This document shows, piece by piece, positions 1-56,341 of a DNA stretch of 64,000 nucleotides. The notes beneath the pieces are model-generated. The model saw nothing but the letters and a program-made list of their open reading frames with translations, did no database searches and was not told the DNA's origin. The translations under genes and the position numbers were made by a program. Numbering within the stretch: the stretch's first letter is position 1; the number at the start of each line of letters is the position of its first letter. The DNA comes from Candidatus Omnitrophota bacterium (GTDB taxonomy: Bacteria; Omnitrophota; Gorgyraeia; Gygaellales; Profunditerraquicolaceae): positions 192,166 to 256,165 of the forward strand of contig JAKLGJ010000004.1 in assembly GCA_022710715.1 (NCBI GenBank), in the 5' to 3' direction.

Positions 1-965
1 GGTATCAGGGGCCGGTATTCATCCAGGCGGATCACGTTCAGGTCAACGCCAAGAAATACGCCGAAGACCCGGACAAGGAGCTTGAAGGTATCAAAGCTTT
101 GATCGCCGACGCGGTCGCGAACCATTTCTATAACATCGACATCGATTCTTCCACCGTCGTGGACCTGTCCAAGTCGGACCTGAAGAAGCAGCAGTTGCAT
201 AATTATAAAGTCTGCGCCAAGCTGACCCAGTTCATCCGTCAGATCCAGCCGCGCGGGATCATGGTTTCGGTGGGCGGCGAGATCGGCGAAGTCGGCCATA
301 AGAATTCCACGCCCGAGGATATGCACGCGTTCATGGCGGGGTATAAAGAGAGCCTGCGCAAAGGGCTGGTGGGTATCAGCAAGATCAGCGTGCAGACCGG
401 CACTTCTCACGGCGGCGTGGTGCTGCCTGACGGCACGATCGCCCAGGTCAAGCTTGATTTCGACACGTTGAAGACGATCTCCGAGATCGCCCGCGCCCAG
501 TACGGCATGTGCGGAGCGGTGCAGCACGGCGCGTCTACGTTGCCCGGGGAAGCATTTAATAAATTCCCCCAGACCGAGACCGGCGAAGTGCATCTGGCCA
601 CCGAGTTCCAGAATATGATTTATGACAGCAAGCATTTTCCGGCAGCGCTTAAAGCCCGGATGTACGAATGGCTCAAGGTGAATGCCGCCGGCGAGAGAAA
701 AGAAGGCGATACCGAAGATCAGTTCTTCTACAAAGCCCGCAAGAAAGCGCTGGGCCAGTTCAAAAAAGATATCATGGGTCTGCCTGCGGATGTGCGCGCC
801 GCCATTGCCGCGGAGATCGAGGCGAAATTCGAGTTCCTTTTCAAACAGCTCAATGTCGGCAATACCAAGCAGTATGTCGATAAATTCGTTCCTTTGAAAC
901 GGGTTATCGTGCGTAAGCGCAAAGAGGGCGAAGCGGTGGTTCACGACGGCGAAGGCGCCGACTAA
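1..965 (+). CDS. Class II (metal-dependent) aldolase family protein, likely fructose-bisphosphate aldolase; 5' end lies outside the window
   Basis: Open frame runs from position 3 with no upstream start in the window. Motifs such as VSVGGEIGEVG and TSHGG resemble class II FBA. Stop TAA at 963-965. Confidence 0.5.
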   Translation, partial: YQGPVFIQADHVQVNAKKYAEDPDKELEGIKALIADAVANHFYNIDIDSSTVVDLSKSDLKKQQLHNYKVCAKLTQFIRQIQPRGIMVSVGGEIGEVGHKNSTPEDMHAFMAGYKESLRKGLVGISKISVQTGTSHGGVVLPDGTIAQVKLDFDTLKTISEIARAQYGMCGAVQHGASTLPGEAFNKFPQTETGEVHLATEFQNMIYDSKHFPAALKARMYEWLKVNAAGERKEGDTEDQFFYKARKKALGQFKKDIMGLPADVRAAIAAEIEAKFEFLFKQLNVGNTKQYVDKFVPLKRVIVRKRKEGEAVVHDGEGAD

Positions 966-1042
966 AAGGGGACGTTCCCCGGGGTACCACCCCTGAACCG
1001 AAAATGAGACGTTAGCTGTTGTTCACTCAAGAGGGAAAGCGT

Positions 1043-2695
1043 ATGCGATCAGATACGATTAAAAAAGGATTGGAACGGGTGCCGCATCGCGCGTTGCTGC
1101 ATGCGACCGGTTTGAGCCGTAAAGATCTGGAGCGTCCGTTTATCGGCGTGGCCAGCTCGTTTACCGATCTGGTGCCGGGTCACGTGGGGATGCGCGATCT
1201 GGAACGATATATCGAGCGCGGTATCTGTTATGCCGGCGCGGTGCCGTTTTTCTTCGGCATCCCGGCTATCTGCGACGGTATTGCCATGGGCCATCTGGGC
1301 ATGTGCTATCCGCTGGCTTCCCGCGAACTGATCGCGGATTCCATCGAGTCGGTTTGCAACGCGCATCAGCTCGACGGCATTGTCTGCCTGACCAACTGCG
1401 ACAAGATCACCCCGGGTATGATCATGGCCGCGGCGCGCCTGAATATCCCGACGCTGATCGTGACTGCCGGCCCGATGCTTTCCGGTCGTTTCCGCAAGCG
1501 CAAGCTGGCGTTCGTGCATGATACCTACGAGGGGCTGGCGCGCGCCAAGAAAGGCGATATTTCGGAGGAGGAACTGACCTGCCTGGAAATGGAAGCCTGT
1601 CCGGGCGCCGGTTCCTGCCAGGGATTGTATACCGCCAATACCATGGCGTGCCTTACCGAAACCATGGGCATGTCTATGCCTGGCTGCGGCACCGCCCTGG
1701 CGGTTTCCGCCAGGAAGCGGCGCATTGCCCAGGCCAGCGGCGAGCGGATTGTGGAGATGGTCAAAAAGAACATCAAGCCGCGGGATATCATTACCGCGGA
1801 ATCGATCGAGAACGCGATCACCGTGGATATGGCGCTGGGCGGTTCCAGCAACACCGTGCTGCATCTGATGGCGATCGCTCATGAAGCCGGCCTGAAGCTG
1901 GAACTCAAGAAATTCGACGAGATCAGCAAACGGGTGCCGCATATCACCAACCTGGAACCTGCCGGGCCGCATTTTATGGAAGACGTGGAATTCTCCGGAG
2001 GGATCCCGGCCGTGCTCAAACGCTTGAAGGCGCAGCTGCACAATACCACCACCGCCAGCGGCAGAAAGATACACGAGATCGCCGATAGCGCGGAAATCGC
2101 GGATGAAGAAGTGATCCGTTCTTTCGGGCGGGCCTACCACAAAGAGGGCGGGATCGCCGTGCTCTACGGTAATCTGGCTCCCAAGGGAGCGGTGGTGAAA
2201 CAGTCCGGCGTGAATCCGCAGATGATGACGTTTACCGGTAAAGCCTGTGTTTTCAACCGGGAAGAGGAGGCCATGCAGGCGATCCTCAACGGCAAGATCA
2301 AGAAGGGCGATTGCGTGGTGATCCGTTACGAAGGGCCTTCGGGCGGCCCGGGCATGCGCGAGATGCTCGCGCCCACCGCCGCGATCGTGGGGTTAGGGCT
2401 GGCTAACGACGTGGCCCTTATTACCGACGGTCGGTTTTCCGGAGGGACCAAAGGACCGTGCATCGGGCATATGTCGCCTGAAGCGGCAGCCGGCGGCCCG
2501 ATTGCTATTTTAAAGAATGGTGATATAATTACCATAGATATTCCCAATCGTACCATTGCGGTGAAACTTACCCGGGCCCAGATACGCAAACGGTTCAAGA
2601 GCTGGAAACCTGTTCCGCCTAAGATCAAAACAGGATATCTCGCCCGTTACTCGCGTATGGTCAGCTCGGCAGATAAAGGAGCGGTTCTTTTCTGA
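1043..2695 (+). CDS. ilvD: Dihydroxy-acid dehydratase
   Basis: Full-length IlvD/EDD-family similarity ([12 protein letters not shown]). ATG at 1043 is preceded by a GAGGGAAAG RBS; the ORF-track start at 1019 is TTG. Confidence 0.9.
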
Positions 2696-2721
2696 AAACG
2701 GTCGAACCGCGCACACAGACT

Positions 2722-4392
2722 ATGTTAATGACAGGTTCGGAAATATTACTGGAGTGTTTGAGACGCGAAGGCGTGGAAGTGATCTTCGGCTATCCCGGCG
2801 GACAGATCCTGCCCACGTTCGATAAGATCTACGACATGGAGATGCGTTTCATTCTCACGCGTCACGAGCAGGCTGCCGCGCACGCCGCGGACGGCTATGC
2901 CCGCGCTACCGGAAAAACGGGGGTGTGTTTGTCGACTTCCGGTCCGGGCGCGACCAATCTGGTCACCGGCATCGCCAACGCTTTTATGGATTCCATTCCC
3001 ATGGTGGCGATCTCCGGGCAGGTCAAGACAACGTTGATCGGCAACGATGCGTTTCAGGAAGCGGATGTAACCGGGATCACCCGGCCGATCACCAAGCATA
3101 ATTATCTGGTCAAAGACGTAAAGGATCTGGCGCAAACCGTGCGCGAAGCTTTTTACATCGCTTCTACCGGCCGGCCCGGTCCGGTGTTGATCGATTTCCC
3201 TTCGGACGTGCAGAACGCCAGGACTGAATTCGTGTGGCCGGAAAAAGTATCCTTGCGCAGCTATAAACCGACGATGTTCGGTCATCCCGGACAGATCAAG
3301 AAAGCGGTCAGGATGATTTGCAGCGCTGAACGTCCGGTGATCTATGCCGGCGGCGGAGTGATCCTGTCCAACGCCAGCGATGAATTGCGTCAGCTGGCGG
3401 AAACGATCAAAGCGCCGGTGACCATGACGCTTATGGGGCTGGGTGCTTTTCCCATCACGCACCCGTTCTGTCTGGGCATGCTCGGTATGCACGGGACGGC
3501 GTACGCCAATCACGCGATCATGGAGTCCGACCTGATCATTGCCGTCGGCGCGCGTTTCGACGACCGGGTTACCGGCAAGCTCGACGCGTTCGCGCCGCAC
3601 GCCAGGATCATCCATATCGATATCGATCCGTCATCGATCAGCAAGAATGTCGGCGTGGATATCCCGATCGTGGGCGACGTGAAGAACGTGCTCGGCCAGT
3701 TGCTCGAAGAATTCAAGAAAACTCCGGACACCGCCGAGTGGTTGAAAGCGGTCGAGGCGTTAAAGAAGAAATTCCCGTTGAAATATACGGATAAAGCGAA
3801 GCTGAGTCCGCAGTATATACTCCAGCAGATAGATGAGGCTACCGGCGGCAACGCCATCATCTGCACGGAAGTAGGCCAGCACCAGATGTGGTCGGCGCAA
3901 TGGTTCAAGTTCAGCCATCCGCGCAGCTTTCTCACTTCCGGGGGGCTGGGCACAATGGGTTTCGGCTTTCCGGCGTCAATGGGCGCCAAGGTCGGCTGCC
4001 CGGACAAAACGGTATTCAACATCGCCGGCGACGGATCGATCCAGATGAACATCCAGGAACTGGCTACCTGTGTCTGTAACAAGATCCCGGTGAAAGTGGC
4101 TATTCTCAACAACGGTTTTCTGGGTATGGTGCGCCAGTGGCAGGAGCTTTTCTATAAGCACCGTTACTCGCATACCACACTCTATAATCCCGATTTTGTC
4201 AAGCTTGCCGAAAGTTACGGAGCGGCGGGGTTGCGCGTGACCAGAAAAGAAGACGTGCGGCCGGCGATCGATAAAGCCATCAAAACGGATAATGTCGTGT
4301 TCATGGATTTTCATATCGAGCCGGAAGAGAACGTGTTTCCGATGGTGCCGGCCGGAGAAGCGCTGAACCGGATGATCGAAGGGCTGGCGTAA
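2722..4392 (+). CDS. ilvB: Acetolactate synthase large subunit (TPP-dependent)
   Basis: N-terminal GYPGG, a GSDG-class thiamine-diphosphate-binding motif (here GDGS) and the FAD domain; 556 aa; ilv operon context. Confidence 0.9.
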   Translation: MLMTGSEILLECLRREGVEVIFGYPGGQILPTFDKIYDMEMRFILTRHEQAAAHAADGYARATGKTGVCLSTSGPGATNLVTGIANAFMDSIPMVAISGQVKTTLIGNDAFQEADVTGITRPITKHNYLVKDVKDLAQTVREAFYIASTGRPGPVLIDFPSDVQNARTEFVWPEKVSLRSYKPTMFGHPGQIKKAVRMICSAERPVIYAGGGVILSNASDELRQLAETIKAPVTMTLMGLGAFPITHPFCLGMLGMHGTAYANHAIMESDLIIAVGARFDDRVTGKLDAFAPHARIIHIDIDPSSISKNVGVDIPIVGDVKNVLGQLLEEFKKTPDTAEWLKAVEALKKKFPLKYTDKAKLSPQYILQQIDEATGGNAIICTEVGQHQMWSAQWFKFSHPRSFLTSGGLGTMGFGFPASMGAKVGCPDKTVFNIAGDGSIQMNIQELATCVCNKIPVKVAILNNGFLGMVRQWQELFYKHRYSHTTLYNPDFVKLAESYGAAGLRVTRKEDVRPAIDKAIKTDNVVFMDFHIEPEENVFPMVPAGEALNRMIEGLA

Positions 4393-4428
4393 TGAGTTAC
4401 GGAGACAGCGCATAATGTCAGGAAAATT

Positions 4429-4902
4429 ATGAGACATACTATATCGGTACTGGTTGAGAACAAGTTCGGCGTGCTGGCGCGCGTGGCGGGATTGTTCAGC
4501 GCCCGCGGGTATAATATCGCTTCGCTGGCGGTCAGCGAAACGCTGACGCCGGACATTTCGTATATGACCATCGTAGTCGAGGCTAAAGACGAGAGGGTGC
4601 TTGAGCAGATCAAGAAGCAGCTCAATAAGCTTATCGACGTGATCTCGGTAACCGATTTCACCAAGAAAGAGCATCTGGACCGGGAGCTGGTGCTGGTCAA
4701 GGTCCGTTACGGCGCAAAAGAGAAAACCAAGCTTGAATCTATCGCCAAGAAATTCTCCGCAACGGTGGTCAAGTGCAAGGCGGATTGCCTGATCATCCAG
4801 GCGGTAGGCGATCAGCTGCAGATAAAAGGTTTATTGGAAGCACTGGGGCATTACACCATCCAGGAATTGATCCGGACCGGCCGTATCGCGCTGACGTATT
4901 AG
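4429..4902 (+). CDS. ilvN: Acetolactate synthase small (regulatory) subunit, ACT domain
   Basis: ACT-domain start (HTISVLVENKFGVLARVAGLFSARGYNI), 157 aa, directly downstream of ilvB. Confidence 0.88.
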   Translation: MRHTISVLVENKFGVLARVAGLFSARGYNIASLAVSETLTPDISYMTIVVEAKDERVLEQIKKQLNKLIDVISVTDFTKKEHLDRELVLVKVRYGAKEKTKLESIAKKFSATVVKCKADCLIIQAVGDQLQIKGLLEALGHYTIQELIRTGRIALTY

Positions 4903-4938
4903 CGACGGGTCCACTAATCGAGAGAAAGGGGTAAGATC

Positions 4939-5931
4939 ATGGCAAAAGTTTACTATGACAAAGACGCGGATTTAGGATTGCTTAAAGACAAGACCGTGGC
5001 TATCATCGGGTACGGTATCCAGGGAAGAGGTCAGTCGTTGTGTTTGCGTGATTCGGGGGTGCGCGTGGTGGTTTCCGAGATGGAAGGCACGCCGAATTTC
5101 CAGAAGGCCAAAGAGGACGGCTTCACTCCGGTTTCCGCGGCGGAAGCAGCCCGGGCGGCTGATATCATCCAGATCCTCACCCAGGATCACGTGCAGGCCA
5201 AAGTATACGTCGATGCGATCAAGCCGAATTTGAAAAAAGGCAAAGCCCTGTGTTTCTCTCACGGGTTCAATATCCATTTCAAGCAGATCAAGCCGCCCAA
5301 GAGCGTGGATGTTTTCATGGTCGCTCCCAAAGGTCCCGGCGCGCTCGTGCGCAAAATGTATGAAGAAGGCAAAGGCGTGCCTTCGCTGGTGGCGGTGTTC
5401 CAGGATGCTTCCGGCGAAGCGCTGAAGATCGCGCTGGCTTACGCCAAGGCGCTCAAAGCCACGACCGCCGGAGTCATCGAGACGACATTCAAGGAAGAGA
5501 CGGAAACGGATCTGTTCGGCGAGCAGGCAGTGCTCTGCGGCGGAGTTTCCGCTCTGATCAAAGCCGGGTTCGAAGTGCTGGTGGAAGCCGGGTATCAGCC
5601 GGAGATCGCTTATTTCGAAGTGCTGCATGAATTGAAACTGATCACGGATATCATCCAGGAAAAAGGCATCAGCGGCATGCGCCGCGGCGTTTCCAACACC
5701 GCCTGCTACGGGGATATTACCCGCGGTCCGCGCATCGTCACTGACAGGACCAAGAAAGAAATGCAAAAGATCCTCAAGGAGATCCAGAAAGGCAAGTTCG
5801 CCAAGGAATGGATCGCCGAGAATGAGCAGGGGCGTCCGAATTTTAACCGCCTGCTTGATGAAGGCGACAAGCACCAGATCGAACAGGTTGGAAAACAATT
5901 GAGAGATATGATGCCATGGATGAAAAAATAA
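4939..5931 (+). CDS. ilvC: Ketol-acid reductoisomerase
   Basis: GYGxQG Rossmann motif; 330 aa class I KARI. Confidence 0.9.
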
Positions 5932-45495: not shown

Positions 45496-46812
45496 ATGGC
45501 AAAACAGAAAACAATCGCGAAGGAAACAAGCATTCAGGGCGTGGGGCTGCATACCGGCCAGCGCGCGCGCGTAGTCTTCAAGCCTGCCGCTGCCGACAGC
45601 GGTATTCAATTCGTGCGCACGGATTTGCCGGCGCAGCCGGTGATCCGCGTCGGCATGGACGCTCCCATAGAACGTTCGGGCAGCCTGCGCTGCAGTTTCC
45701 TGGGACAGGCGGAGAACCAGATCCAGACGGTAGAGCATCTGCTGGCGGCATTGAACGGTCTGGGTATCGATACCATACGCATCGAGGTCGACGCCAGCGA
45801 GATCCCGGGGATGGACGGCAGCAGCAAAGAGTTCTGCGAGCTCCTGGAGAAAGCGGGTATCCGGGAACTGGAAGCCGATGCCCGGACTATCGCCGTGAAG
45901 GAGCCGATCGTCATTCAGGACAACCGGGCCAGCATCACGGCATTGCCCTATGACGGTTTGAAGATTTCTTACACGTTGAGTTACGATCATCCTTTTCTGC
46001 AGGCCCAGTTCCTCGAAATGGAGATTACGCCTGCGGTATTCAAACAGCACCTGGCCGCCGCCAGGACCTTTTGTCTGGAAGACGAAGTGGAGCATCTGCG
46101 CACCAAAGGGTTCGGTAAAGGCGCCAATTACGACAATACCCTGGTGGTCGGCAAAAAAGGGGTGATCAGGAACAGTTTGCGTTACCCCGATGAATTCGTG
46201 CGCCACAAAATTCTCGACCTGATCGGCGATATTTACAGCCGGGGCGTGGCGGTCAAAGGTCATATTATCGCTTTGCGCAGCGGTCATTCCCTGAACATCC
46301 AGCTGGTCAAGCGGATACTGGCGCAGCAGAGTGCGGCCGTTCCCGCGGTGCCGGAATCCCGGGAAGTCATTCCGGGCTCCGGATTGGATGTCAACCAGAT
46401 CATGAAGATTATCCCGCACCGGGAACCGTTTTTATTCGTGGACCGGATCATTTCGCTGGAACCCGGCAAGAGTATCGTGGGTATCAAGAACGTCACCATC
46501 AACGATTACTTCTTCCGGGGGCATTTCCCGGGCAAACCCGTTATGCCGGGCGTGCTCATTATCGAAGCCATGGCCCAGGTCGGCGGAGTGATGATGCTTT
46601 CCCAGCCGGGCAACCAGGGAAAGATCGCTTTTTTCATGCTTATCAATAACGCTAAATTCAGGAAAGTAGTCGTTCCCGGCGATCAGCTGGTATTCGAGGT
46701 GAGGTCGCTGCGGGTAAAATCAAGGATCGGCCAGCTCTATGGCACGGCATCCGTCGACGGAAAAGTGGTCGCAGAAGCGGAATTGACCTGCGCCCTTGAT
46801 GAATCGTCTTAA
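45496..46812 (+). CDS. lpxC-fabZ: Bifunctional UDP-3-O-acyl-GlcNAc deacetylase / 3-hydroxyacyl-ACP dehydratase (LpxC-FabZ fusion)
   Basis: N-terminal LpxC (zinc ligands HKxLD) fused to a C-terminal FabZ hotdog (GHFPGKPVMPGVLIIEAMAQ). Confidence 0.85.
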   Translation: MAKQKTIAKETSIQGVGLHTGQRARVVFKPAAADSGIQFVRTDLPAQPVIRVGMDAPIERSGSLRCSFLGQAENQIQTVEHLLAALNGLGIDTIRIEVDASEIPGMDGSSKEFCELLEKAGIRELEADARTIAVKEPIVIQDNRASITALPYDGLKISYTLSYDHPFLQAQFLEMEITPAVFKQHLAAARTFCLEDEVEHLRTKGFGKGANYDNTLVVGKKGVIRNSLRYPDEFVRHKILDLIGDIYSRGVAVKGHIIALRSGHSLNIQLVKRILAQQSAAVPAVPESREVIPGSGLDVNQIMKIIPHREPFLFVDRIISLEPGKSIVGIKNVTINDYFFRGHFPGKPVMPGVLIIEAMAQVGGVMMLSQPGNQGKIAFFMLINNAKFRKVVVPGDQLVFEVRSLRVKSRIGQLYGTASVDGKVVAEAELTCALDESS

Positions 46813-47699: not shown

Positions 47700-48524
47700 A
47701 TGGAGAGAATCGGATTAATTGCTGGGAACAGACGTTTTCCGATTGTTTTCGCCCAGGCTGCGCGCAAAGCCCGTCAGCCGGTAGTCGCGATCGCGATCAA
47801 AGGCGAAACCTCCCGGCAATTGGCCAGGCTGGTAGAAAAGGTTTACTGGCTGTCTTTGAAGGATTTCGACCGGCTCTTCGATATTTTCCAGTCCGAAGGG
47901 ATTACCCGGGTGGTGATGGCCGGACAGATCAGCCCTTTCCGACTGTTCAGCCGGGAAGTCAGGGAGAGCCGGAGTTTACAGAAGTTGCTGGCGGCGATGA
48001 AAGACCGCAAAGCCAATACCATCTTCTCATCGATCGCCGGTCAGATGGAAAAAGCCGGGATACAGCTGATCGATTCCACCACGTTCCTGCAGGATCAGAT
48101 TCCCGGCGTCGGGGTGTTGACGCGGCGCCAGCCAACCGCCGAAGAATGGGCGGATGTGCGTTTTGGCTATGAGCTGGCTAAGAAAATCGCCGACCTGGAC
48201 ATCGGACTGACCATCGGGGTAAAGAATAAAGCCGTAGTCGGGGTTGAAGCCCTGGAAGGAACCGATAATCTTATCCGCCGGGCCGGGCGGATCGCCCGGG
48301 GCAACCTGGTGGTGATCAAAGTCGGCCGCACCGGTCAGGATATGCGTTTTGATATTCCGGTAGTCGGTCTGCAGACGGTCAAAACCCTGGTGAAGGCCGG
48401 AGCGAGCTGTCTGGCTATGGAATCCGGAACAACGCTGATTCTCGATCGGCAGGAGGTGATCCGTCTGGCGGATGCCCGCGGTATTGCTCTGGTTGCCGTG
48501 AAGGCGGTTAATAAAAATCCTTGA
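47700..48524 (+). CDS. lpxI: UDP-2,3-diacylglucosamine pyrophosphatase LpxI (DUF1009)
   Basis: DUF1009 family, immediately downstream of lpxA. Confidence 0.75.
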   Translation: MERIGLIAGNRRFPIVFAQAARKARQPVVAIAIKGETSRQLARLVEKVYWLSLKDFDRLFDIFQSEGITRVVMAGQISPFRLFSREVRESRSLQKLLAAMKDRKANTIFSSIAGQMEKAGIQLIDSTTFLQDQIPGVGVLTRRQPTAEEWADVRFGYELAKKIADLDIGLTIGVKNKAVVGVEALEGTDNLIRRAGRIARGNLVVIKVGRTGQDMRFDIPVVGLQTVKTLVKAGASCLAMESGTTLILDRQEVIRLADARGIALVAVKAVNKNP

Positions 48525-48548: not shown

Positions 48549-48574
48549 AACTAATTGTGACAAAGGAGGTTAAC

Positions 48575-48877
48575 ATGCCAAGAACAGGCACAGTGTCAAA
48601 AACAGATTCAAAGCCGAAGGTGGCAAAAGTTACGCAGTTCAAAATAGCCATGCCTAAGGCCAAAAGGGTCAGTGTAGCGGGGACGTTCAATAATTGGGAT
48701 ACAAACAGTCTTCTAGCCAAGAAAGACGTCAAGGGAACCTGGGCAGTTAAGGTTAACCTGACGCCCGGCACATACGAATATAAGTTCTTTGTTGACGGGT
48801 CCTGGCTCAATGATCCTCAATCCCAAGTGGTGTATAACTCTTTTGGGACCCAGAATTCGGTTATCGAAGTAAAATAG
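48575..48877 (+). CDS. Stand-alone glycogen/starch-binding CBM48 (AMPK-beta/isoamylase N-terminal-like) domain protein
   Basis: AGGAGG RBS 8 nt upstream of the ATG at 48575. The KRVSVAGTFNNWD...YEYKFFVDGSWLNDP pattern is typical of CBM48. Confidence 0.7.
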   Translation: MPRTGTVSKTDSKPKVAKVTQFKIAMPKAKRVSVAGTFNNWDTNSLLAKKDVKGTWAVKVNLTPGTYEYKFFVDGSWLNDPQSQVVYNSFGTQNSVIEVK

Positions 48878-48941: not shown

Positions 48942-49661
48942 ATGAAAAGCATTTATGGTCCGGTGCAGTCAAGACGGTTAGGTTTCTCGCTGGGCATTTC
49001 GCTGACGCCGCATAAGACCTGCAGTTTTGACTGTGTTTATTGCCAGCTGGGGGCTTCTGCCCGCAGGACCCGGGAACGCAAACCCTACGTTCCCGTTGAA
49101 GATGTTCTGGCAGAATTGCGGGCGTGGCTGGCGGATAACGCGGCTCTGGCCGGAAAGCTCGATTATGTGACTCTTTCGGGTTCCGGCGAGCCGGTATTGC
49201 ACAGCGGTATCGGGCAGATCATTGCCGGGATCAAAGCATTGACGGCGATCCCGGTTTGTTTGATCACCAATTCTTCATTGCTGGTCGATGCTGCGGTAAG
49301 AAAATCGATCCTGGGCGCGGATGTGATCATTCCTTCTCTGGATGCGGCTACGCAGGATATTTTTGAGCGGATAGACCGGCCGATGCCCGGTATCCAGGTG
49401 GAAGATATTATCGCTGCGCTGGTCGCTCTACGCAAAGAATACGCCGGCAGGATCTGGCTGGAAGTGATGCTGGTTAAAGGTATCAATGATAGCCGCGAGC
49501 ATATCAAATTGCTGGCGCAGACGGTGAAACGCATCGGCCCGGATAAATGCCAGCTTACTTCGCCGGTGCGCTGCACCGCGGAAAAGGATATCTTTCCGGT
49601 GGAACGCGGCGCGATGGAATCGTTCTGCGCGCTTATCGGCGGCGTCTGCGAAGTATATTGA
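48942..49661 (+). CDS. Radical SAM protein (small, no SPASM domain; family unassigned)
   Basis: CSFDCVYC CxxxCxxC cluster motif near the N-terminus. ATG at 48942; the ORF-track start at 48915 is TTG, inside the terminator hairpin. Confidence 0.7.
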   Translation: MKSIYGPVQSRRLGFSLGISLTPHKTCSFDCVYCQLGASARRTRERKPYVPVEDVLAELRAWLADNAALAGKLDYVTLSGSGEPVLHSGIGQIIAGIKALTAIPVCLITNSSLLVDAAVRKSILGADVIIPSLDAATQDIFERIDRPMPGIQVEDIIAALVALRKEYAGRIWLEVMLVKGINDSREHIKLLAQTVKRIGPDKCQLTSPVRCTAEKDIFPVERGAMESFCALIGGVCEVY

Positions 49662-49684
49662 CCGGGGAACGTCCCCATAGAAGC

Positions 49685-49838
49685 GGATGATAGCTGCGCC
49701 TGTCCCTGCAGATGTGCTGCGCACATCTATGCGCAGGGACACGGCGCGAAACGGATCATAGCTGCGCCTGCCCCTGCAGATGTGCTGCGCACATCTATGC
49801 GCAGGGACACGGCGCGAAACGGATCATAGCTGCGCCTG
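49685..49838 (+). repeat. Tandem 68 bp direct repeat (2.26 copies) ending in the tRNA-Arg 5' end
   Basis: Units begin at 49685, 49753 and 49821 (period 68). Each carries GGAT(G/C)ATAGCTGCGCCTG, identical to the tRNA-Arg leader plus first 7 nt, then a 39 nt hairpin GTCCCTGCAGATGTGC-TGC-GCACATCT-ATGC-GCAGGGAC (49702-49740 and 49770-49808). The third unit continues into the real tRNA. Confidence 0.8.
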
Positions 49839-49905
49839 TAGCTCAATTGGATAGAGCGCCAGCCTTCGGAGCTGGGCGTTGCAGGTTCAAGTCCTGCCAG
49901 GCGCA
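49832..49905 (+). tRNA. tRNA-Arg (anticodon UCG)
   Basis: Cloverleaf: acceptor GCGCCTG/CAGGCGC, D stem GCTC/GAGC, anticodon stem CCAGC/GCTGG with loop CTTCGGA, T arm GCAGG-TTCAAGT-CCTGC. Confidence 0.8.
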
Positions 49906-49951
49906 TTGAGTTTGAGGAAGCCGGGAGCAGGGAAATTTTGTTGATTTGCTG

Positions 49952-49980
49952 TTGCAAATCCCGCCATTTTACGCTAAAAT
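49952..49980 (+). promoter_or_regulatory. Sigma70-like promoter for tRNA-Lys
   Basis: TTGCAA at 49952-49957 (part of a GATTTGC/GCAAATC hairpin), a 17 nt spacer and TAAAAT at 49975-49980. Confidence 0.4.
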
Positions 49981-49995
49981 AATTAAACTGATTTC

Positions 49996-50068
49996 GGGCC
50001 GCTAGCTCAATTGGTAGAGCAGGACCCTCTTAAGGTCAAGGTTCGTGGTTCGATTCCACGGCGGCTCA
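49996..50068 (+). tRNA. tRNA-Lys (anticodon CUU)
   Basis: Cloverleaf: acceptor GGGCCGC/GCGGCTC (one G-U pair), D stem GCTC/GAGC, anticodon loop CTCTTAA, T arm CGTGG-TTCGATT-CCACG. There is a 27:43 G-A mismatch. Confidence 0.65.
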
Positions 50069-50084
50069 TTTATATTCTTTCCAG

Positions 50085-50513
50085 GTGGATCAGAGCACGT
50101 TCAAGATTATCGAGCATACCGCTGATATCGGTATCGAGGTCATCGGCGCACGCCTGGCGGATCTGTTTATCCATGCGGCTGAAGCGATGTTCTCGCTTAT
50201 CGCATCGCGTAAGACAGGCGTTTCTACGCGACGGACTGCGCGCACAATTCCCATCCACCTGGAGGCGGCAGACAGCGAAGAATTATTCATCGCATGGTTG
50301 AATGAACTCCTGTCTCTATCTGCCGTTAAAAACGTCATATTCTCTGATTTTCGTATAGACACAATCGACGATACTCATCTTAAAGGATCTGTCCGGGGAG
50401 AACCTGTCGCCCGGTATCGGATCACTACCGAGATCAAAGCGGCTACATTTCATGAACTGGCTCTGGAACATAGAGGTTCTTCCTGGAAAGCCAAGGTGAT
50501 TTTTGATGTCTGA
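50085..50513 (+). CDS. Archease (RtcB activator)
   Basis: EHTADIG motif near the N-terminus; about 140 aa. GTG start. Confidence 0.8.
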   Translation: MDQSTFKIIEHTADIGIEVIGARLADLFIHAAEAMFSLIASRKTGVSTRRTARTIPIHLEAADSEELFIAWLNELLSLSAVKNVIFSDFRIDTIDDTHLKGSVRGEPVARYRITTEIKAATFHELALEHRGSSWKAKVIFDV

Positions 50514-50805
50514 AGAGAGTTCCGGCGGCGGGATGGAAAAAAGGCAATTCCCCAGGGTGGAGGTCAACACCGCGGTCAAGTTCTCTGTAGTCATGCCGGC
50601 AGTAGAAGAAGGCATTTCCAAGGACATCAGTCAGGGAGGTTTGTGCCTTCACACCAAAAGAGCCCTGGTGCAAGGAACCATCCTGCATGTGGATTTCGAC
50701 CTGCCGGGAGACCCGCCGGTGCATGTTGAAGCGCTGGGAAAAGTCGTCTGGCAGCGCACCGATCCCGACGGCAGCTTCGCTACCGGGATAAAATTTATCA
50801 GTTAA
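50506..50805 (+). CDS. PilZ domain (c-di-GMP-binding) protein
   Basis: QFPRVEV (RxxxR-like) and DISQGG (DxSxxG) PilZ motifs. The ATG at 50506 overlaps the archease stop; an alternative start is at 50533. Confidence 0.65.
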   Translation: MSEESSGGGMEKRQFPRVEVNTAVKFSVVMPAVEEGISKDISQGGLCLHTKRALVQGTILHVDFDLPGDPPVHVEALGKVVWQRTDPDGSFATGIKFIS

Positions 50806-50816
50806 ATCAGATACAG

Positions 50817-53807
50817 ATGAGCGATCTTTGGCAGGGAACGTTGGAGAAAGTCGACGATTTTCGCTGGCGCATCCCGCCTTCCTATAAGCCCGGCATGCGC
50901 GTGCCGGGCCTTATTTATGCCGACGAGAAGCTCTTAAAAGACATTCTCCGCGACAAAGCCGCGGAGCAGGTCGCCAATGTGGCGTTCCTGCCGGGGATCA
51001 TCAACGCTTCTCTGGCCATGCCGGATATTCACTGGGGCTATGGTTTCCCCATCGGCGGCGTCGCAGCGACGGATATCGAGGCCGGAGGAGTGATCTCGCC
51101 CGGCGGCGTTGGGTTCGATATCAACTGCCTTACCGCTGAATCGCGCGTCTTGCATGCTTTCGGCTATTCTCTGCGTATTGCCGATCTTGAACAGACCTGG
51201 CGGACGAATCGGTTAGCGGTCATGGATTTCCGCCGGGGCAGAAAAGAGGATGCGGCGATCTGCGCGTATATCAAGATGGCGCCGCGAGAAAAGCTCTTTG
51301 AGATAACTACGGTAACGGGGAGGAAAATAAAAGCCACGGCAGATCATCCTTTCTGGACGCAGGACGGCATGGTGCCTCTGAAACGGCTTGCGGCAGGCAA
51401 TCGTGTAGCCCTGTACCCTTTTGAAGGTGTGCCTTTCGAGAAACCGGGCGGGGAGATCATTGTCGACGAAGAAGACGTAGTGCGGTTGCTTGCAGCGCTT
51501 AAAAAGGACTCGGGCGGCAATGCCGGTATCCAGGTTTTGAATCATCTGAAAAAAAGAGGCCTTTTACCGTTGCGCTACGATTCGCCGGCGTTGCCTTATT
51601 TGATCAAGATAGCGGGGTATTGTATCGGCGACGGTAATATCCATTTTGCTAAAAGCCGCGGCAAAGGAGTGACCGGATTCTGGGGGAAGAAAGAAGACCT
51701 GGAGCTCATTCGTAAAGATGTCGCGAAAACCGGGTTCACTTGCTCGCGGGTGTACCGGCGCAACCGCCGGCATGCAATCAACACCCCCTATGATTTGGTT
51801 CAATTCGAGCATCTGGAAGAGTCCTGCAAGGTCGTTTCCAGTTCTTTTTCCGTATTATTGATCTTATTGGGCTGTCCATATGGCAATAAGGCGGAGAAGC
51901 CGTTTTCTGTTCCGCGATGGCTATTCAAAGCTCCGCTTTGGCAGAAGAGATTGTTCCTGGCAGCTTACTTCGGGGCGGAAATGTCATCGCCGAAATCTTT
52001 TCGCGAGCAGGGATATAATCTCTATTGTCCCGTAGTTTCAATGAACAAGAACGGGCTTCTAGCCGACGATGCTATCGCGTTTTTCAAAGATATTTCCACC
52101 CTGTTGACCGAGTTCGGGGTCAGGACGGTCGCGATCAGCGAAAGTCACTCCGGATTTACCAGGAAAGGGACTTTCAACTATCGTATACGGTTGATCCTGG
52201 CCAGCAAAACCGAAGATCTGATAACACTGTACAGCAGGGTAGGATTTGAGTATAATCTTCACCGCAGTTTCCTGGCTAATGCCGCTATTCAGTTCTTGAA
52301 ATACAAACAGCGGATACTCCGGGAACGCGAGGAGAAAAGCGTTCAGGCACAGCGTTTGCATGCCCGGGGCTTCAGTCCCGCCCAGATTACCGAGAGTATC
52401 GGCTCGGAATTCGTGAATCGCCGGTTCATTGAAAGATCTGTTTATGAAGGCAGGAAAACGGGCCCACGCATAAGTTCCGCGGCGTTGAATTTCGTCAGCT
52501 TTATGGATGAGAATACCGCGGGATTAGAGATGTCCGGCATGCTCTGGGACGCGATCGAGACGATCGAAGAATCGGCGTCTCCGGAGTATGTATACGATTT
52601 TACTGTAGGGCATCGGGATCATAATTTTGTTGCCGACACTTTCGTGGTTTCTAACTGCGGGGTCAGGTTGTTGACCACCAACCTGCGCTACGATGACGTC
52701 AAAGACAGGATCAAAGATTTAACCTGCCGGCTCTTTAACGCTATTCCCACCGGCGTCGGATCGAAAGGCGATATCCGGATCAGCGAGAAGGAAGAGCGCA
52801 AGCTCCTGGTCGAAGGAGCGGGTTGGGCGGTCAAACAGGGTTTCGGGGTCCAGGAAGATCTGGAGTGCACTGAAGAATCCGGCGCGATCCAGGGCGCGGA
52901 TCCCGCGGCAGTTTCCGAACGCGCCTATGAGCGCGGCAAGGCCCAATCGGGCACGCTGGGTTCAGGCAACCATTTCCTGGAAGTGCAGGTGATCGACCAG
53001 TTGTATAACCGCGACGCCTGCGATGCCCTTAATCTTGACCAGGGACAGATCACCCTCATGATCCATTCCGGCTCGCGCGGTCTGGGGTATCAGATCTGCG
53101 ACGATTACGTCCGGTCGATGGTGCGTTGTCTGGACAAGTATAAGATCGAAGTGCCGGACCGCCAGCTGGCCTGCGCGCCGGTAACCTCGCCGGAAGGGAA
53201 AGCTTATCTGGCCGCGATGCGCTGCGCGGCCAACTATGCCTGGGCCAACCGGCAATGCCTGATGCATCTGGCGCGGTTGACGTTCCAGGAGTTCTTCGGG
53301 ACTCCCTGGCAGAAGATGCAGATGCGCCTGGTGTATGATGTGGCGCATAACATCGCCAAGATCGAAAAACACACGGTGAACGGGCAGCTCAAGAATGTCT
53401 GCGTGCATCGCAAAGGGGCGACCCGCGCGTTCGGCCCCGGGCATCCGGAACTGCCGCAGCGGTATCGTCAGATGGGCCAGCCGGTGATCATCCCCGGCGA
53501 TATGGGGCGCAATTCTTACTTATTGGTCGGCACGCAGCAAGCGATGGAAGAAACATTCGGCAGCACCTGCCACGGCGCGGGCCGGGTGATGTCGCGCAGC
53601 GCCGCGACCCGGTCCATCGACAGCCGGCAGTTGCTTAAAGATCTGGAATCGAAAGGTATTACGGTGATGGCTGCCGGCAGAGGCACGCTGGTGGAAGAGG
53701 CGCCGGAAGTTTACAAGAACGTCAATGACGTGGTTGATGTAGTGCACAAGGCCGGGCTGTCCACCCGGGTGTGCAGGATGAGACCCCTGGGAGTGATTAA
53801 AGGATAA
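50817..53807 (+). CDS. rtcB: RNA-splicing ligase RtcB interrupted by a large intein
   Basis: Exteins carry GFDIN|[14 protein letters not shown] and GSTCHGAGR RtcB motifs. 996 aa versus about 480 for canonical RtcB. Confidence 0.9.
51126..52655 (+). mobile_element. RtcB intein (510 aa) with LAGLIDADG homing-endonuclease domain
   Basis: Starts with Cys (CLTAESRVL) and block B TADHPF. LAGLIDADG-like [14 protein letters not shown] and [10 protein letters not shown]. Block [16 protein letters not shown] and block G TFVVSN followed by +1 Cys. The penultimate residue is Ser rather than His. Confidence 0.85.
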
Positions 53808-53833: not shown

Positions 53834-55102
53834 ATGCTGGATATGCGATTCATACGCGAGAACGCGGATCTGGTCAAAACGGCTTTGCAGAAGCGTAATT
53901 CCAAATTCGACCTGGACAGTGTCCTGCGGGTCGACGACGACCGGCGCAAAGTGCTGGGCGAAGTGGAAGCTTTACGCGCCCGGCAGAATAAAGCCAACGA
54001 CGAGATCAGCGCATTGTTGAAAGCCAAACAGGATCCCAAAGAAACGATCGCTTCGATGAAAGAGATCTCCCGCCAGATCAACGAACTGGAAGGCCAGTTA
54101 GCGCTCAAGGAAGCGGATCTGAACAAACTTCTTCTGACCATCCCGAACGTGCCGCATGAGTCGGTTCCCGTCGGCGCGCCGGATAAAGCGGTGATCGTCC
54201 GCAACTGGGGTACGCCCCGGCAGTTCGATTTCAAACCGCAGAGTCACGTCGAGCTGTGCGAGAATCTGGATATCGTGGATTTTGCCCGCGCCACCAAGAT
54301 CAGCGGTTCGAATTTCCTGCTTTTCAAAGGATGGGGCGCCAAGCTTGAGCGGGCGTTGTTCAACTTCATGCTCGATCTGCATACTTCCAGGCACGGATAT
54401 ACCGAGATCTTTCCGCCGTATCTGGTCAATCGTAAAACCATGACCGGGACCGGGCAGCTGCCCAAGATGGAAGAGGACATGTACCGGCTTAAAGATGAAG
54501 ACATGTTCCTGATCCCGACCGCAGAAGTGCCGGTGACCAATATCTACGGAGACGAGATCCTTAACGAGGATGATCTGCCCCGGTACCTGACCGCCTATAC
54601 CGCCTGTTTTAGAAGAGAAGCGGGTTCTTACGGCAAGGACACGCGCGGGATGATGCGCGTTCATCAGTTCGACAAGGTGGAGATGGTGAAGTTCGTCAAA
54701 CCGGAAAACTCATACGCGGAACTGGAAACGCTGGTCAATAACGCGGAGACCGTATTGCAGCTGCTGGGTTTGCCTTACCGGGTGGTGGCGTTGTCTTCGC
54801 AGGATATCAGCTTTGCCGCCGCCAAATGTTACGATCTGGAAGCCTGGGCGCCGGGCACGGATAAATGGCTGGAAGTGTCGAGCTGTTCGAATTTCGAAGG
54901 GTTTCAGGCGCGGCGGGCGAATATCCGTTTCCGCCGGAAAGATACGAAGAAAGTCGAATTCGTGCATACCCTGAACGGGTCAGGGGTAGCGCTGGCGCGC
55001 ACGGTGATCGCCATCCTGGAAAATTATCAGCAAAAGGACGGTTCCATCATCATACCCGAAGTCTTAAGGAGATACCTCGATGGCAAAGAAACCATTTCCT
55101 AG
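53834..55102 (+). CDS. serS: Seryl-tRNA synthetase
   Basis: N-terminal coiled coil and class II aaRS motifs 2/3 (FRRE, GSGxA). Confidence 0.9.
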
Positions 55103-55811
55103 GGATTTTGACGCGGGCCCGCAGGGGCAGGACGCACCTGATTTCAGTCAGCTTGATCCGGGACTCGATTCCGGCGGCGACATAAAGTCGAAAGGGAGGA
55201 TGTTCGCCGAGAAAGTCGCCAGCGTGATCAAATTCGTGCTGGGATTGATCCTGCTGGTGGTGGTTTATGCCGGCACGCGGGCGTTCCTGGATGAATTCAA
55301 TACCCTGGATAAAATGATCAAGTCGTATTTCTGGTGGGGGGTGTTGAGTTTCGTGCTTTTTCATTTCTTCGTTTTTGAGCCGGCGATCGTCTATCAAAAG
55401 GGACAGAAGCTGCTGGCGTTTGTCTTTAAATTCTTTGCGCCGCTGGTGAAAGTCGCGCCGTTCGTCCTGCCCATCTACGCCCTTGTGTTATTGTGCGTGT
55501 ATCCTTTGTTGATGCTTTTGAATTCAACGCGCCAGGATATGGTCACGCTGTATTGCGTGTTCACTCTGGGATTGACCATGGCTCTGCATATTGTTTTCAG
55601 CGCCAAGACATTGCGTTCCCGCCAGGGCGACTTTTTGAAGGCGAATTATCTGTTCGGTTTTTCGCTGGTATATGTGATCAACCTGTTTATACTGGGATTC
55701 GCTTTGAATCTGTTGTTCGCGGAGTTCTCCTTCCTGGATTTCTTCACCGGGATGTCCAGGATCGCCCACGGCATCTATTACGCGGTGGTCAAGCAGGTGT
55801 TCGCACTGTGA
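55080..55811 (+). CDS. Polytopic membrane protein of unknown function
   Basis: About 6 predicted TM helices and no known motif. Overlaps the serS 3' end. Confidence 0.5.
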
Positions 55812-55953: not shown

Positions 55954-56043
55954 CGACTGAGCGAAGCGCAGGAGTCCCGTGAACGCAGTGAACGGGAAAT
56001 GCGCTTGCGCATCGTCAGGCGATGCCAATGGCGGAATCTTTCT

Positions 56044-56130
56044 GGTGGGGTGGCAGAGCGGTTGAATGCGGCAGTCTTGAAAACTGTTAAGGGCGCAAGT
56101 CCTTCGAGAGTTCGAATCTCTCCCCCACCG
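56044..56130 (+). tRNA. tRNA-Ser (anticodon UGA)
   Basis: Class II tRNA: acceptor GGTGGGG/CCCCACC, 3 bp D stem with an 11 nt loop, anticodon loop CTTGAAA, 18 nt variable arm, T arm GAGAG-TTCGAAT-CTCTC. Confidence 0.8.
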
Positions 56131-56341
56131 TTTATTTTCAACGGGTTACACCATGATGTTATTGGTAAACAATTCGACGGTGTCCCCGGCAGTATGCCTG
56201 CCTCGGTTCTTTCCGGAATGTGCTTAAAAAGCGGTTCTTTCCTCCGGGCGAAGTGACGGTCGGGGCGGCAATAGTGCAGTTAAGCCTAATGCTGACAATA
56301 ACTAATATCTTTTTTTCGCATCGGGATCTTTAAACTATCTC

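Follow-up and report, generated by a model that had tools for sequence, protein, structure and literature searches.

The 64,000-nucleotide window analysed here (that is, the whole stretch, positions 192,166 to 256,165 of contig JAKLGJ010000004.1 from a Candidatus Omnitrophota bacterium) contains an archease gene, an rtcB gene coding for an RNA ligase, and between the two a gene coding for a stand-alone PilZ domain protein. This locus represents the Omnitrophota form of the known archease-RtcB "tRNA splicing/repair" operon, a lineage-specific one in which RtcB carries an intein and a PilZ gene has been inserted. Judged from sequence comparisons, the PilZ protein is probably (probability of roughly 0.6) a functional receptor of cyclic di-GMP (c-di-GMP) which is co-expressed with the RNA ligase pair and does not depend on it. 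It would most likely signal to another target and be a co-expressed passenger of the operon, because its selective value is independent of archease and RtcB.

The three genes are all located on the forward strand. The archease (142 aa, positions 50085-50513, GTG start) scored 122.8 bits against the Pfam family PF01951 (cut-off 25, E=1.6e-35), with residues 6-142 spanning positions 1-136 of the 136 of the profile, and its C-terminus, ...KVIFDV followed by the stop codon, is the same in all relatives. The rtcB gene (50817-53807) is found 304 nt 3' of archease on the same strand and codes for a precursor of 996 aa which matched PF01139 with 574 bits (E=2.8e-172), so that the archease and RtcB assignments made in a first-pass annotation of this DNA hold. 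The sole gene between them (50506-50805, ATG start) codes for the PilZ protein of 99 aa. It scored 48.3 bits against PF07238 for a cut-off of 22.5 (E=1.4e-12), and thus passed the hidden Markov model (HMM) check which the same annotation had proposed.

The two ligand motifs of PilZ domains, RxxxR and DxSxxG, are present in the window protein as RQFPR (R13-R17) and DISQGG (D40-G45). A search among 5.8 billion proteins returned just 23 homologues, all of about 100 aa, 57-74% identical and, where the source is named, all from Omnitrophota. Residues R13, R17, D40, S42 and G45 are invariant in these 23 homologues, and both motifs were present in 45/45 locus copies examined. The AlphaFold2 (AF2) model of the protein had a predicted local distance difference test score (pLDDT) of 76, and its best structural matches include the PilZ domains of MotI/DgrA, BcsA and Alg44, with weak E-values of 0.13-0.3 as is expected for so small a domain. 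A profile search of the PDB with the PilZ alignment gave one marginal match (8u0i, E=0.13). No GGDEF motif was found in the 64-kb window. From the invariant motifs we infer that c-di-GMP is bound and that, by its sequence, the protein would be a bona fide c-di-GMP receptor. Being only 99 aa long and overlapping the archease 3' end, the PilZ reading frame might be taken for a spurious or decaying open reading frame (ORF) in the archease-rtcB spacer. This explanation is refuted by the conservation pattern and we give it practically no credence: the Pfam match exceeds the gathering threshold, about 30 distinct orthologues with 45-74% identity keep the ligand-binding motifs invariant, the ratio of nonsynonymous to synonymous substitution rates (dN/dS) is 0.04-0.10 in most pairs and at most 0.29, and the perfect Shine-Dalgarno sequence of PilZ is kept even after deletion of archease.

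We then compared the junction between the genes with that of related loci (designated below by L numbers). In the window, the ATG of PilZ is placed 8 nt inside archease, the overlap reading ATGTCTGA, and the last archease codons contain its Shine-Dalgarno sequence, AAGGTGAT. The rtcB gene starts 11 nt after the PilZ stop without recognisable Shine-Dalgarno sequence; this distance is 11-15 nt in most archease-PilZ-RtcB loci and up to 46 nt, again with no Shine-Dalgarno. In loci devoid of PilZ, the default junction, seen in the majority of the 32 that were read, is GATGTCTGA, which contains both the archease stop and the start of rtcB (M-S-D/E-x-W-Q-G). Where PilZ is present, it begins at the same ATGTCTGA as rtcB does in the default loci, giving an MSD/E N-terminus, and the 8-nt overlap is identical in nearly all archease-PilZ-RtcB loci. 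The start of PilZ being the default start of rtcB, the overlap was inherited: it is the coupling site of archease and rtcB, which the insertion captured. The first-pass annotation had seen in this overlap a translational coupling of PilZ to archease; the 8-nt ATG/stop overlap is real, but the coupling site is ancestral to archease and rtcB and did not evolve for PilZ. The following scenario can be proposed. Ancestrally, the rtcB start ATGTCTGA would have overlapped the archease stop and coupled the translation of archease and rtcB. In one Omnitrophota group, a stand-alone PilZ gene would have been inserted right after the coupled rtcB start, and would now use this start together with the Shine-Dalgarno sequence of the last archease codons. 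The rtcB gene would then probably be translated by re-initiation after PilZ, because it follows the PilZ stop closely without Shine-Dalgarno sequence.

The fate of PilZ in loci where the ligase pair is gone also changes the interpretation. At least seven distinct loci (L012, L103, L104, L108, L109 (=L114), L110 and L111) have tRNA-Lys followed by an intact PilZ without archease. In all of them except L104, the contig of which ends just after PilZ, the gene coding for seryl-tRNA synthetase (SerRS) comes directly after PilZ and RtcB is absent, the spacer between PilZ and SerRS being 21-205 nt. The start ATG(T/A)xTGA is kept in 7/7 of these PilZ-only loci, and the last archease codons are still recognisable in 6/7, where they hold the Shine-Dalgarno sequence of PilZ (...KAKVIFDV, ...TEVISDV or ...GQVNLDV, each followed by a stop). 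Locus L012 contains an in-frame remnant made of the N- and C-terminal parts of archease, KKYFRFIEHTAD-ELKLAREMSSWKAEAIFDV followed by a stop (...SWKAEAIFDV and stop), and two remnants of RtcB, the N-terminal LLFADEKLIKDI and a 13-residue C-terminal fragment. These archease and RtcB remnants mean that the PilZ-only loci are deletions and not the ancestral state. On the SerRS and PilZ trees, the PilZ-only loci occupy at least three separate places; therefore archease and rtcB were lost together repeatedly while PilZ stayed, and such a joint loss is as expected for an obligate pair. Both PilZ ligand motifs are kept in every PilZ-only locus. Within the archease/RtcB-less clade L103/L109/L111, the dN/dS of PilZ was 0.05-0.10, indistinguishable from the 0.08-0.09 of archease-PilZ-RtcB pairs. 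At this locus, PilZ on one side and archease and RtcB on the other are thus not mutually dependent, since PilZ is under purifying selection in PilZ-only loci and most archease-RtcB operons are without PilZ.

The distribution of the gene order was examined with an archease alignment, by a scan of species-representative genomes from which the best 80 loci were taken. RtcB comes directly after archease in most of these 80 loci, and PilZ was found between the two in seven of them, all from Omnitrophota. Look-ups of the gene context, together with a scan of metagenomes with the PilZ alignment, brought the archease-PilZ-RtcB arrangement to about 23 distinct Omnitrophota loci, among which L007, L009, L011, L017, L018, L034, L047, L049, L096, L097, L099, L102, L105-L107 and L112. 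A second PilZ subfamily, about 45% identical to the first one, is located between archease and RtcB in L091 and L121, and in L125 and L127 it comes after archease and is followed by an unannotated ORF at the place of RtcB. Tandem PilZ-PilZ pairs are present between archease and rtcB in L113 (560-1168), L123 (5647-6288) and L124; the second copy of L123 belongs to subfamily 2 and the two copies define two branches of this subfamily, which suggests a duplication followed by differential loss. The first-pass annotation had stated that its proposal would fall if the synteny were kept in no relative or if the PilZ ORF failed the PilZ HMMs; the synteny is conserved in many relatives (about 23 loci) and the HMM check was passed, so neither of these outcomes was observed.

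The archease/rtcB junction is permissive to insertion. Other genes found there in PilZ-less lineages code for a GIY-YIG nuclease (L035:5488-5823) and a 470-aa DUF4139 protein (L016:631-2043), and a gene for a DUF2007 protein occupies it in L042 (2721-2990) and L050 (5374-5631). Since unrelated genes are present at the same junction, insertion there alone does not imply function. The spacer between tRNA-Arg and tRNA-Lys, of 0.1-2.8 kb, is likewise a variable cargo slot (L015, L020, L022, L030, L035, L059, L103, L109, L110, L012). Its genes differ by lineage and code for a DsbA-like thioredoxin, a methyltransferase, a response regulator, membrane proteins or another PilZ, the latter being in L022 unrelated to the PilZ studied here. 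As a separate observation, L009 carries directly 5' of archease (1-5473) an island with an integrase, a ThsB-like TIR protein, a D12 methyltransferase and HTH genes, which is absent in the conspecific L010 and is probably an integrative defence island at tRNA-Lys.

The first-pass annotation had inferred a c-di-GMP-responsive RNA-repair unit from gene order. In such a unit, PilZ would modulate the archease-RtcB ligase in a way that depends on c-di-GMP, for instance by sequestering archease or by gating its GTP-dependent guanylylation of RtcB. Both divergent PilZ subfamilies occur exclusively between archease and RtcB, as could be expected of a modulator, but the great majority of archease-RtcB operons, most of those from Omnitrophota included, are without PilZ. 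The archease/PilZ overlap, together with the close rtcB lacking a Shine-Dalgarno sequence, would give three proteins from one translational unit; this overlap was however inherited from the archease-rtcB coupling, and unrelated GIY-YIG and DUF4139 genes are tolerated at the same site. The invariant c-di-GMP motifs also speak for a modulator, and RtcB consumes GTP, from which c-di-GMP is synthesised. Yet PilZ is kept at a dN/dS of 0.05-0.10 where archease and rtcB were deleted at the locus, in at least three independent events, and a second PilZ target would be needed to explain its retention after loss of the ligase. Such a modulator is also without precedent in the literature searched, in which we found no paper linking archease with PilZ. 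With an ancestral overlap, a PilZ that outlives archease and rtcB, and unrelated genes at the junction, the c-di-GMP-responsive unit is unsupported and we consider a modulator role unlikely. PilZ might instead belong with the constant part of the cluster and have SerRS, a 243-aa multi-pass membrane protein coded 3' of SerRS (mem243) or tRNA maturation as target, and not RtcB. All PilZ-only loci with a contig running past PilZ keep it 5' of SerRS and mem243 and 3' of tRNA-Lys, but position alone is a weak argument as genes that have not moved stay put. SerRS and mem243 overlap and are conserved phylum-wide, yet most Omnitrophota have both without PilZ, and mem243 is without family match. We know of no interaction between a PilZ protein and an aminoacyl-tRNA synthetase, and such a target seems to us quite unlikely.

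That PilZ is co-expressed with the ligase pair and acts elsewhere is the reading we prefer, and the following points weigh against it. The expression of rtcB now appears dependent on PilZ translation. The loss of archease and rtcB was seen at this locus, and both genes may sit elsewhere in the PilZ-only genomes. Two observations also favour a modulator: in Pseudomonas aeruginosa, deletion of rtcB alters c-di-GMP levels by raising them (PMC8619066), which indicates some physiological RtcB/c-di-GMP link in at least one bacterium, and the DUF2007 protein found at the same junction in L042 and L050 is a small putative signalling protein, annotated as "putative prokaryotic signal transducing protein". 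The members found of the PilZ family, with 2 subfamilies and about 30 distinct sequences, tandem pairs included, are all located at this junction or at its deleted derivative, and such a long-term positional fidelity is also expected from a functional partnership; the more distant PilZ proteins of that scan (L117-L120, 28-41% identical) lack all of these neighbours. Finally, the SerRS tree groups the subfamily-2 loci L121/L122 with the PilZ-less L053/L054. PilZ was gained more than once at the junction or lost many times, and a repeated gain would hint at selection for position. A single origin had been suggested by a first SerRS tree with one PilZ clade and was abandoned when, with the subfamily-2 loci added, this clade received 0/100 bootstrap support; the archease tree is too short to resolve the number of origins.

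The rtcB ORF is about twice the usual length, the intein-free rtcB of close relatives coding for 486 aa. The first-pass annotation had the family right and overlooked an intein of 510 aa at residues 104-613. The N-extein corresponds to positions 50817-51125, the intein to 51126-52655 and the C-extein to 52656-53807, with the junctions DIN/CLTAES...FVVSN/CGVRL (the slash marking the splice junction). The exteins aligned end to end with the RtcB of Pyrococcus horikoshii (Pho; PDB 1uc2, E=1.2e-162), the metal- and GMP-binding residues (Pho D95, C98, N202, H203, H234, H329 and H404) are all conserved, and the STCHGAGR motif is kept. The intein is inserted directly before the metal-binding cysteine, its +1 residue Cys614 corresponding to Pho Cys98, and exhibits the features of class-1 inteins, namely C104, a block B ATADHPF (TxxH), the terminal asparagine N613 and C614 at +1. 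It scored 56.6 bits against PF14890 for a cut-off of 35.8 and exceeded the cut-offs of TIGR01445 and TIGR01443, and the whole ORF scored 1222.6 bits against NF038162, "intein-containing RtcB family protein" (cut-off 1150). A weak similarity with the DnaB mini-intein 1mi8 was also found. Six Omnitrophota intein alleles share the block B ATxDHPF and the LAGLIDADG-like motifs KIxGYCxGDG and FLAxxFGAE (FLAAYFGAE in the window). No Pfam LAGLIDADG model matched the intein, and the putative LAGLIDADG-type endonuclease insert is called from the conserved motifs alone.

The 996-aa precursor would have to excise its 510-aa intein, a putative homing-endonuclease one, by which the DINC-G metal site would be regenerated. 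The stimulation of RtcB guanylylation by archease and the ligation chemistry of RtcB are established for the family. By analogy, archease would promote the GTP-dependent guanylylation of the spliced RtcB, and RtcB would seal 3'-phosphate or 2',3'-cyclic phosphate ends to 5'-OH RNA ends. The intein is sporadic among close relatives, being absent for instance from L011 and L049. We found also that the rtcB genes of L023 (5410-8097) and L030 (5533-8223), coding for 895 and 896 aa, have no insert at the Cys98 site; instead, about 400 extra residues are inserted close to the C-terminus, probably at a second site of intein insertion (compare NCBIfam NF052663, "RtcB_rel_intein2").

The operon is part of a larger cluster. 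In Omnitrophota loci whose flanks reach far enough, the shared order is CBM48, radical SAM, tRNA-Arg(TCG), the variable cargo slot, tRNA-Lys(CTT), archease, RtcB, SerRS, the membrane protein and tRNA-Ser(TGA), the tRNA and radical SAM genes being phylum-wide conserved neighbours. In the window, every element listed in the first-pass annotation was found at the position it gave. A CBM48 protein (48557-48877, forward strand) and a radical SAM protein of 239 aa (48942-49661, ATG start, forward strand; PF04055, E=9.5e-15) precede tRNA-Arg(TCG) (49831-49906, forward strand), detected by ARAGORN and by Rfam RF00005 with 70.1 bits. This tRNA gene is at the same place in 28/31 loci scanned, with L009, L016 and L113 as exceptions. 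The tRNA-Lys(CTT) gene (49996-50068, forward strand; ARAGORN and Rfam) ends 16 nt 5' of the archease start; the distance is about 10-50 nt in most scanned loci with both genes, and about 180-900 nt in L010, L017 and L106. SerRS (53834-55102, forward strand; PF02403 and PF00587) follows RtcB, or PilZ where RtcB was deleted, in the Omnitrophota, Atribacterota and Dadabacteria loci. The archease-RtcB-SerRS adjacency was thus also seen beyond Omnitrophota, in L063, L074, L075 and L081 (Atribacterota) and in L090 (Dadabacteria). The gene for mem243 (55080-55811, forward strand) overlaps the 3' end of SerRS by 23 nt; the protein has no Pfam or NCBIfam match, and a homologue is located 3' of SerRS in nearly all Omnitrophota loci examined. 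The cluster probably ends with tRNA-Ser(TGA) (56043-56131, forward strand; tRNA scans), 3' of which a terminator-like hairpin is present (56188-56202, forward strand). A match to the Rfam family sX4 over tRNA-Ser (56030-56174), with 38 bits for a gathering score of 70, was rejected and is probably a chance match driven by the tRNA.

A sigma-70-like promoter match, TTGCAA-17-TAAAAT, was found by consensus scan 5' of tRNA-Lys (49952-49980, forward strand; 9/12 positions) and is possibly the promoter of the operon. From this site to tRNA-Ser, the scan of the forward strand gave three weak terminator-like hairpins, inside rtcB and mem243, a total which does not exceed that of shuffled controls, and none in the intergenic spacers. 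This pattern of hairpins and promoter is compatible with a single transcript from tRNA-Lys to tRNA-Ser. Upstream of the cluster are the genes for BamA, OmpH, LpxD, LpxC-FabZ (a fusion ORF of 438 aa, 45496-46812), LpxA, LpxI (47700-48524, forward strand) and CBM48, and downstream those for SerRS, the 243-aa membrane protein, CheW and MCP. The LpxD/LpxC-FabZ/LpxA/LpxI lipid A cluster lies directly upstream of the region and is kept in relatives. Among the genes called within about 8 kb on either side, neither rtcA nor rtcR was present, in agreement with the earlier annotation.

The small radical SAM protein and the two tRNA genes upstream of the operon were confirmed, and so was the lack of a named function for the former. 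Against the NCBIfam equivalogs, including the TIGRFAM check proposed earlier, no model reached its cut-off, the best being MoaA with 48.8 bits against 284. Among 8000 candidates scored, 5918 homologues had an E-value of 1e-10 or lower; in the best 120 listed, those with a name are called "radical SAM protein" by NCBI (Omnitrophota) or COG0731 "wyosine synthetase" by JGI, the latter label being a carry-over from COG0731. No PDB match was obtained by sequence. The AF2 model (pLDDT 88.5) gave in Foldseek the P. horikoshii TYW1 2yx0 as best match (E=1e-10), followed by NifB, PFL-AE and viperin. An assignment as TYW1 was rejected, since the match to 2yx0 covers the generic radical SAM core only and the cut-off of the TYW1 equivalog was missed about 10-fold (31.1 bits against 318). 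By sequence and model, the protein appears to have a COG0731/TYW1-like core only, and no named function is assignable from family, name and fold searches. In Omnitrophota loci with a flank reaching that far, its gene is located directly 5' of tRNA-Arg.

Between the two, the window contains a tandem repeat of 68 bp in 2.4 copies (49680-49839, forward strand; TRF score 299, repeat families D1/D2). Each unit combines the leader of tRNA-Arg with the first 8 nt of the tRNA itself and a long hairpin, and the RNA fold has a z-score of -5.4. The conspecific contigs L002 (285-400), L003 and L005 have 1.4 units. The repeat was rejected as a mobile or regulatory element: the hairpin core has just two occurrences in the window, both in the tandem repeat, no Rfam family matched, and in 8/8 other species checked the end of the radical SAM gene is 3-12 nt from tRNA-Arg, which leaves no space for it. 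It is a local, strain-variable duplication.

An action of PilZ on either archease or RtcB, if real, would connect c-di-GMP signalling with RNA ligation or tRNA repair for the first time, and would be the first control of these processes by a second messenger; it would also give a handle on the purpose of bacterial RtcB. The value of the locus is at present mainly evolutionary. A gene inserted into a translationally coupled pair hijacks the start of the downstream gene, and the functionally linked archease and rtcB are an example of genes repeatedly lost together while the inserted gene stays. The locus is also an example of an intein placed on a catalytic cysteine, and, for the little-studied Omnitrophota, it puts on record a tRNA/RtcB/SerRS cluster conserved across the phylum.

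Earlier work has described both the operon of archease and RtcB and its mechanism (Desai et al. 2014, PMC3973293; Desai et al. 2015, PMC4604427). As in the "tRNA splicing operon" of archaea and bacteria, the two families are present in the window with archease upstream of rtcB on the same strand and in tight coupling. The window differs in that PilZ is inserted and holds the coupled start of rtcB, and in that tRNA-Lys and SerRS flank the operon; neither tRNA introns nor a splicing endonuclease are implied. With the RtcR-RtcA-RtcB system of E. coli it shares an RtcB-family 3'-phosphate/5'-OH RNA ligase, whereas the sigma-54 activator RtcR and the RtcA cyclase are lacking among the called genes about 8 kb to each side, and archease, which E. 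coli does without, is present. Against the E. coli-type RtcB model NF007153, the window protein reached 169.6 for a cut-off of 407, and it is of the archaeal/Thermus type.

Inteins in RtcB have been reported before, with 27 bacterial and 10 archaeal cases counted (Novikova et al. 2016, PMC4760082). Like P. horikoshii PH1602 and the other members of NF038162, the window RtcB has a class-1 intein with Cys1, a terminal asparagine and a +1 cysteine, inserted before the equivalent of Pho Cys98. Its host phylum, Omnitrophota, is absent from the phyla listed in that survey, and the known cases differ further from this one in that the intein is here sporadic among close relatives and that L023 and L030 have a second site near the C-terminus. 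With the stand-alone PilZ adaptors of the P. aeruginosa PA4608 type, B. subtilis MotI/DgrA and the domains of Alg44 and BcsA, the PilZ protein has in common the PF07238 family, the RxxxR and DxSxxG motifs and a predicted beta-barrel. Unlike these, it is a minimal domain of about 85 residues with a variable acidic N-terminal tail, and its family is restricted to a single genomic locus of one group of bacteria.

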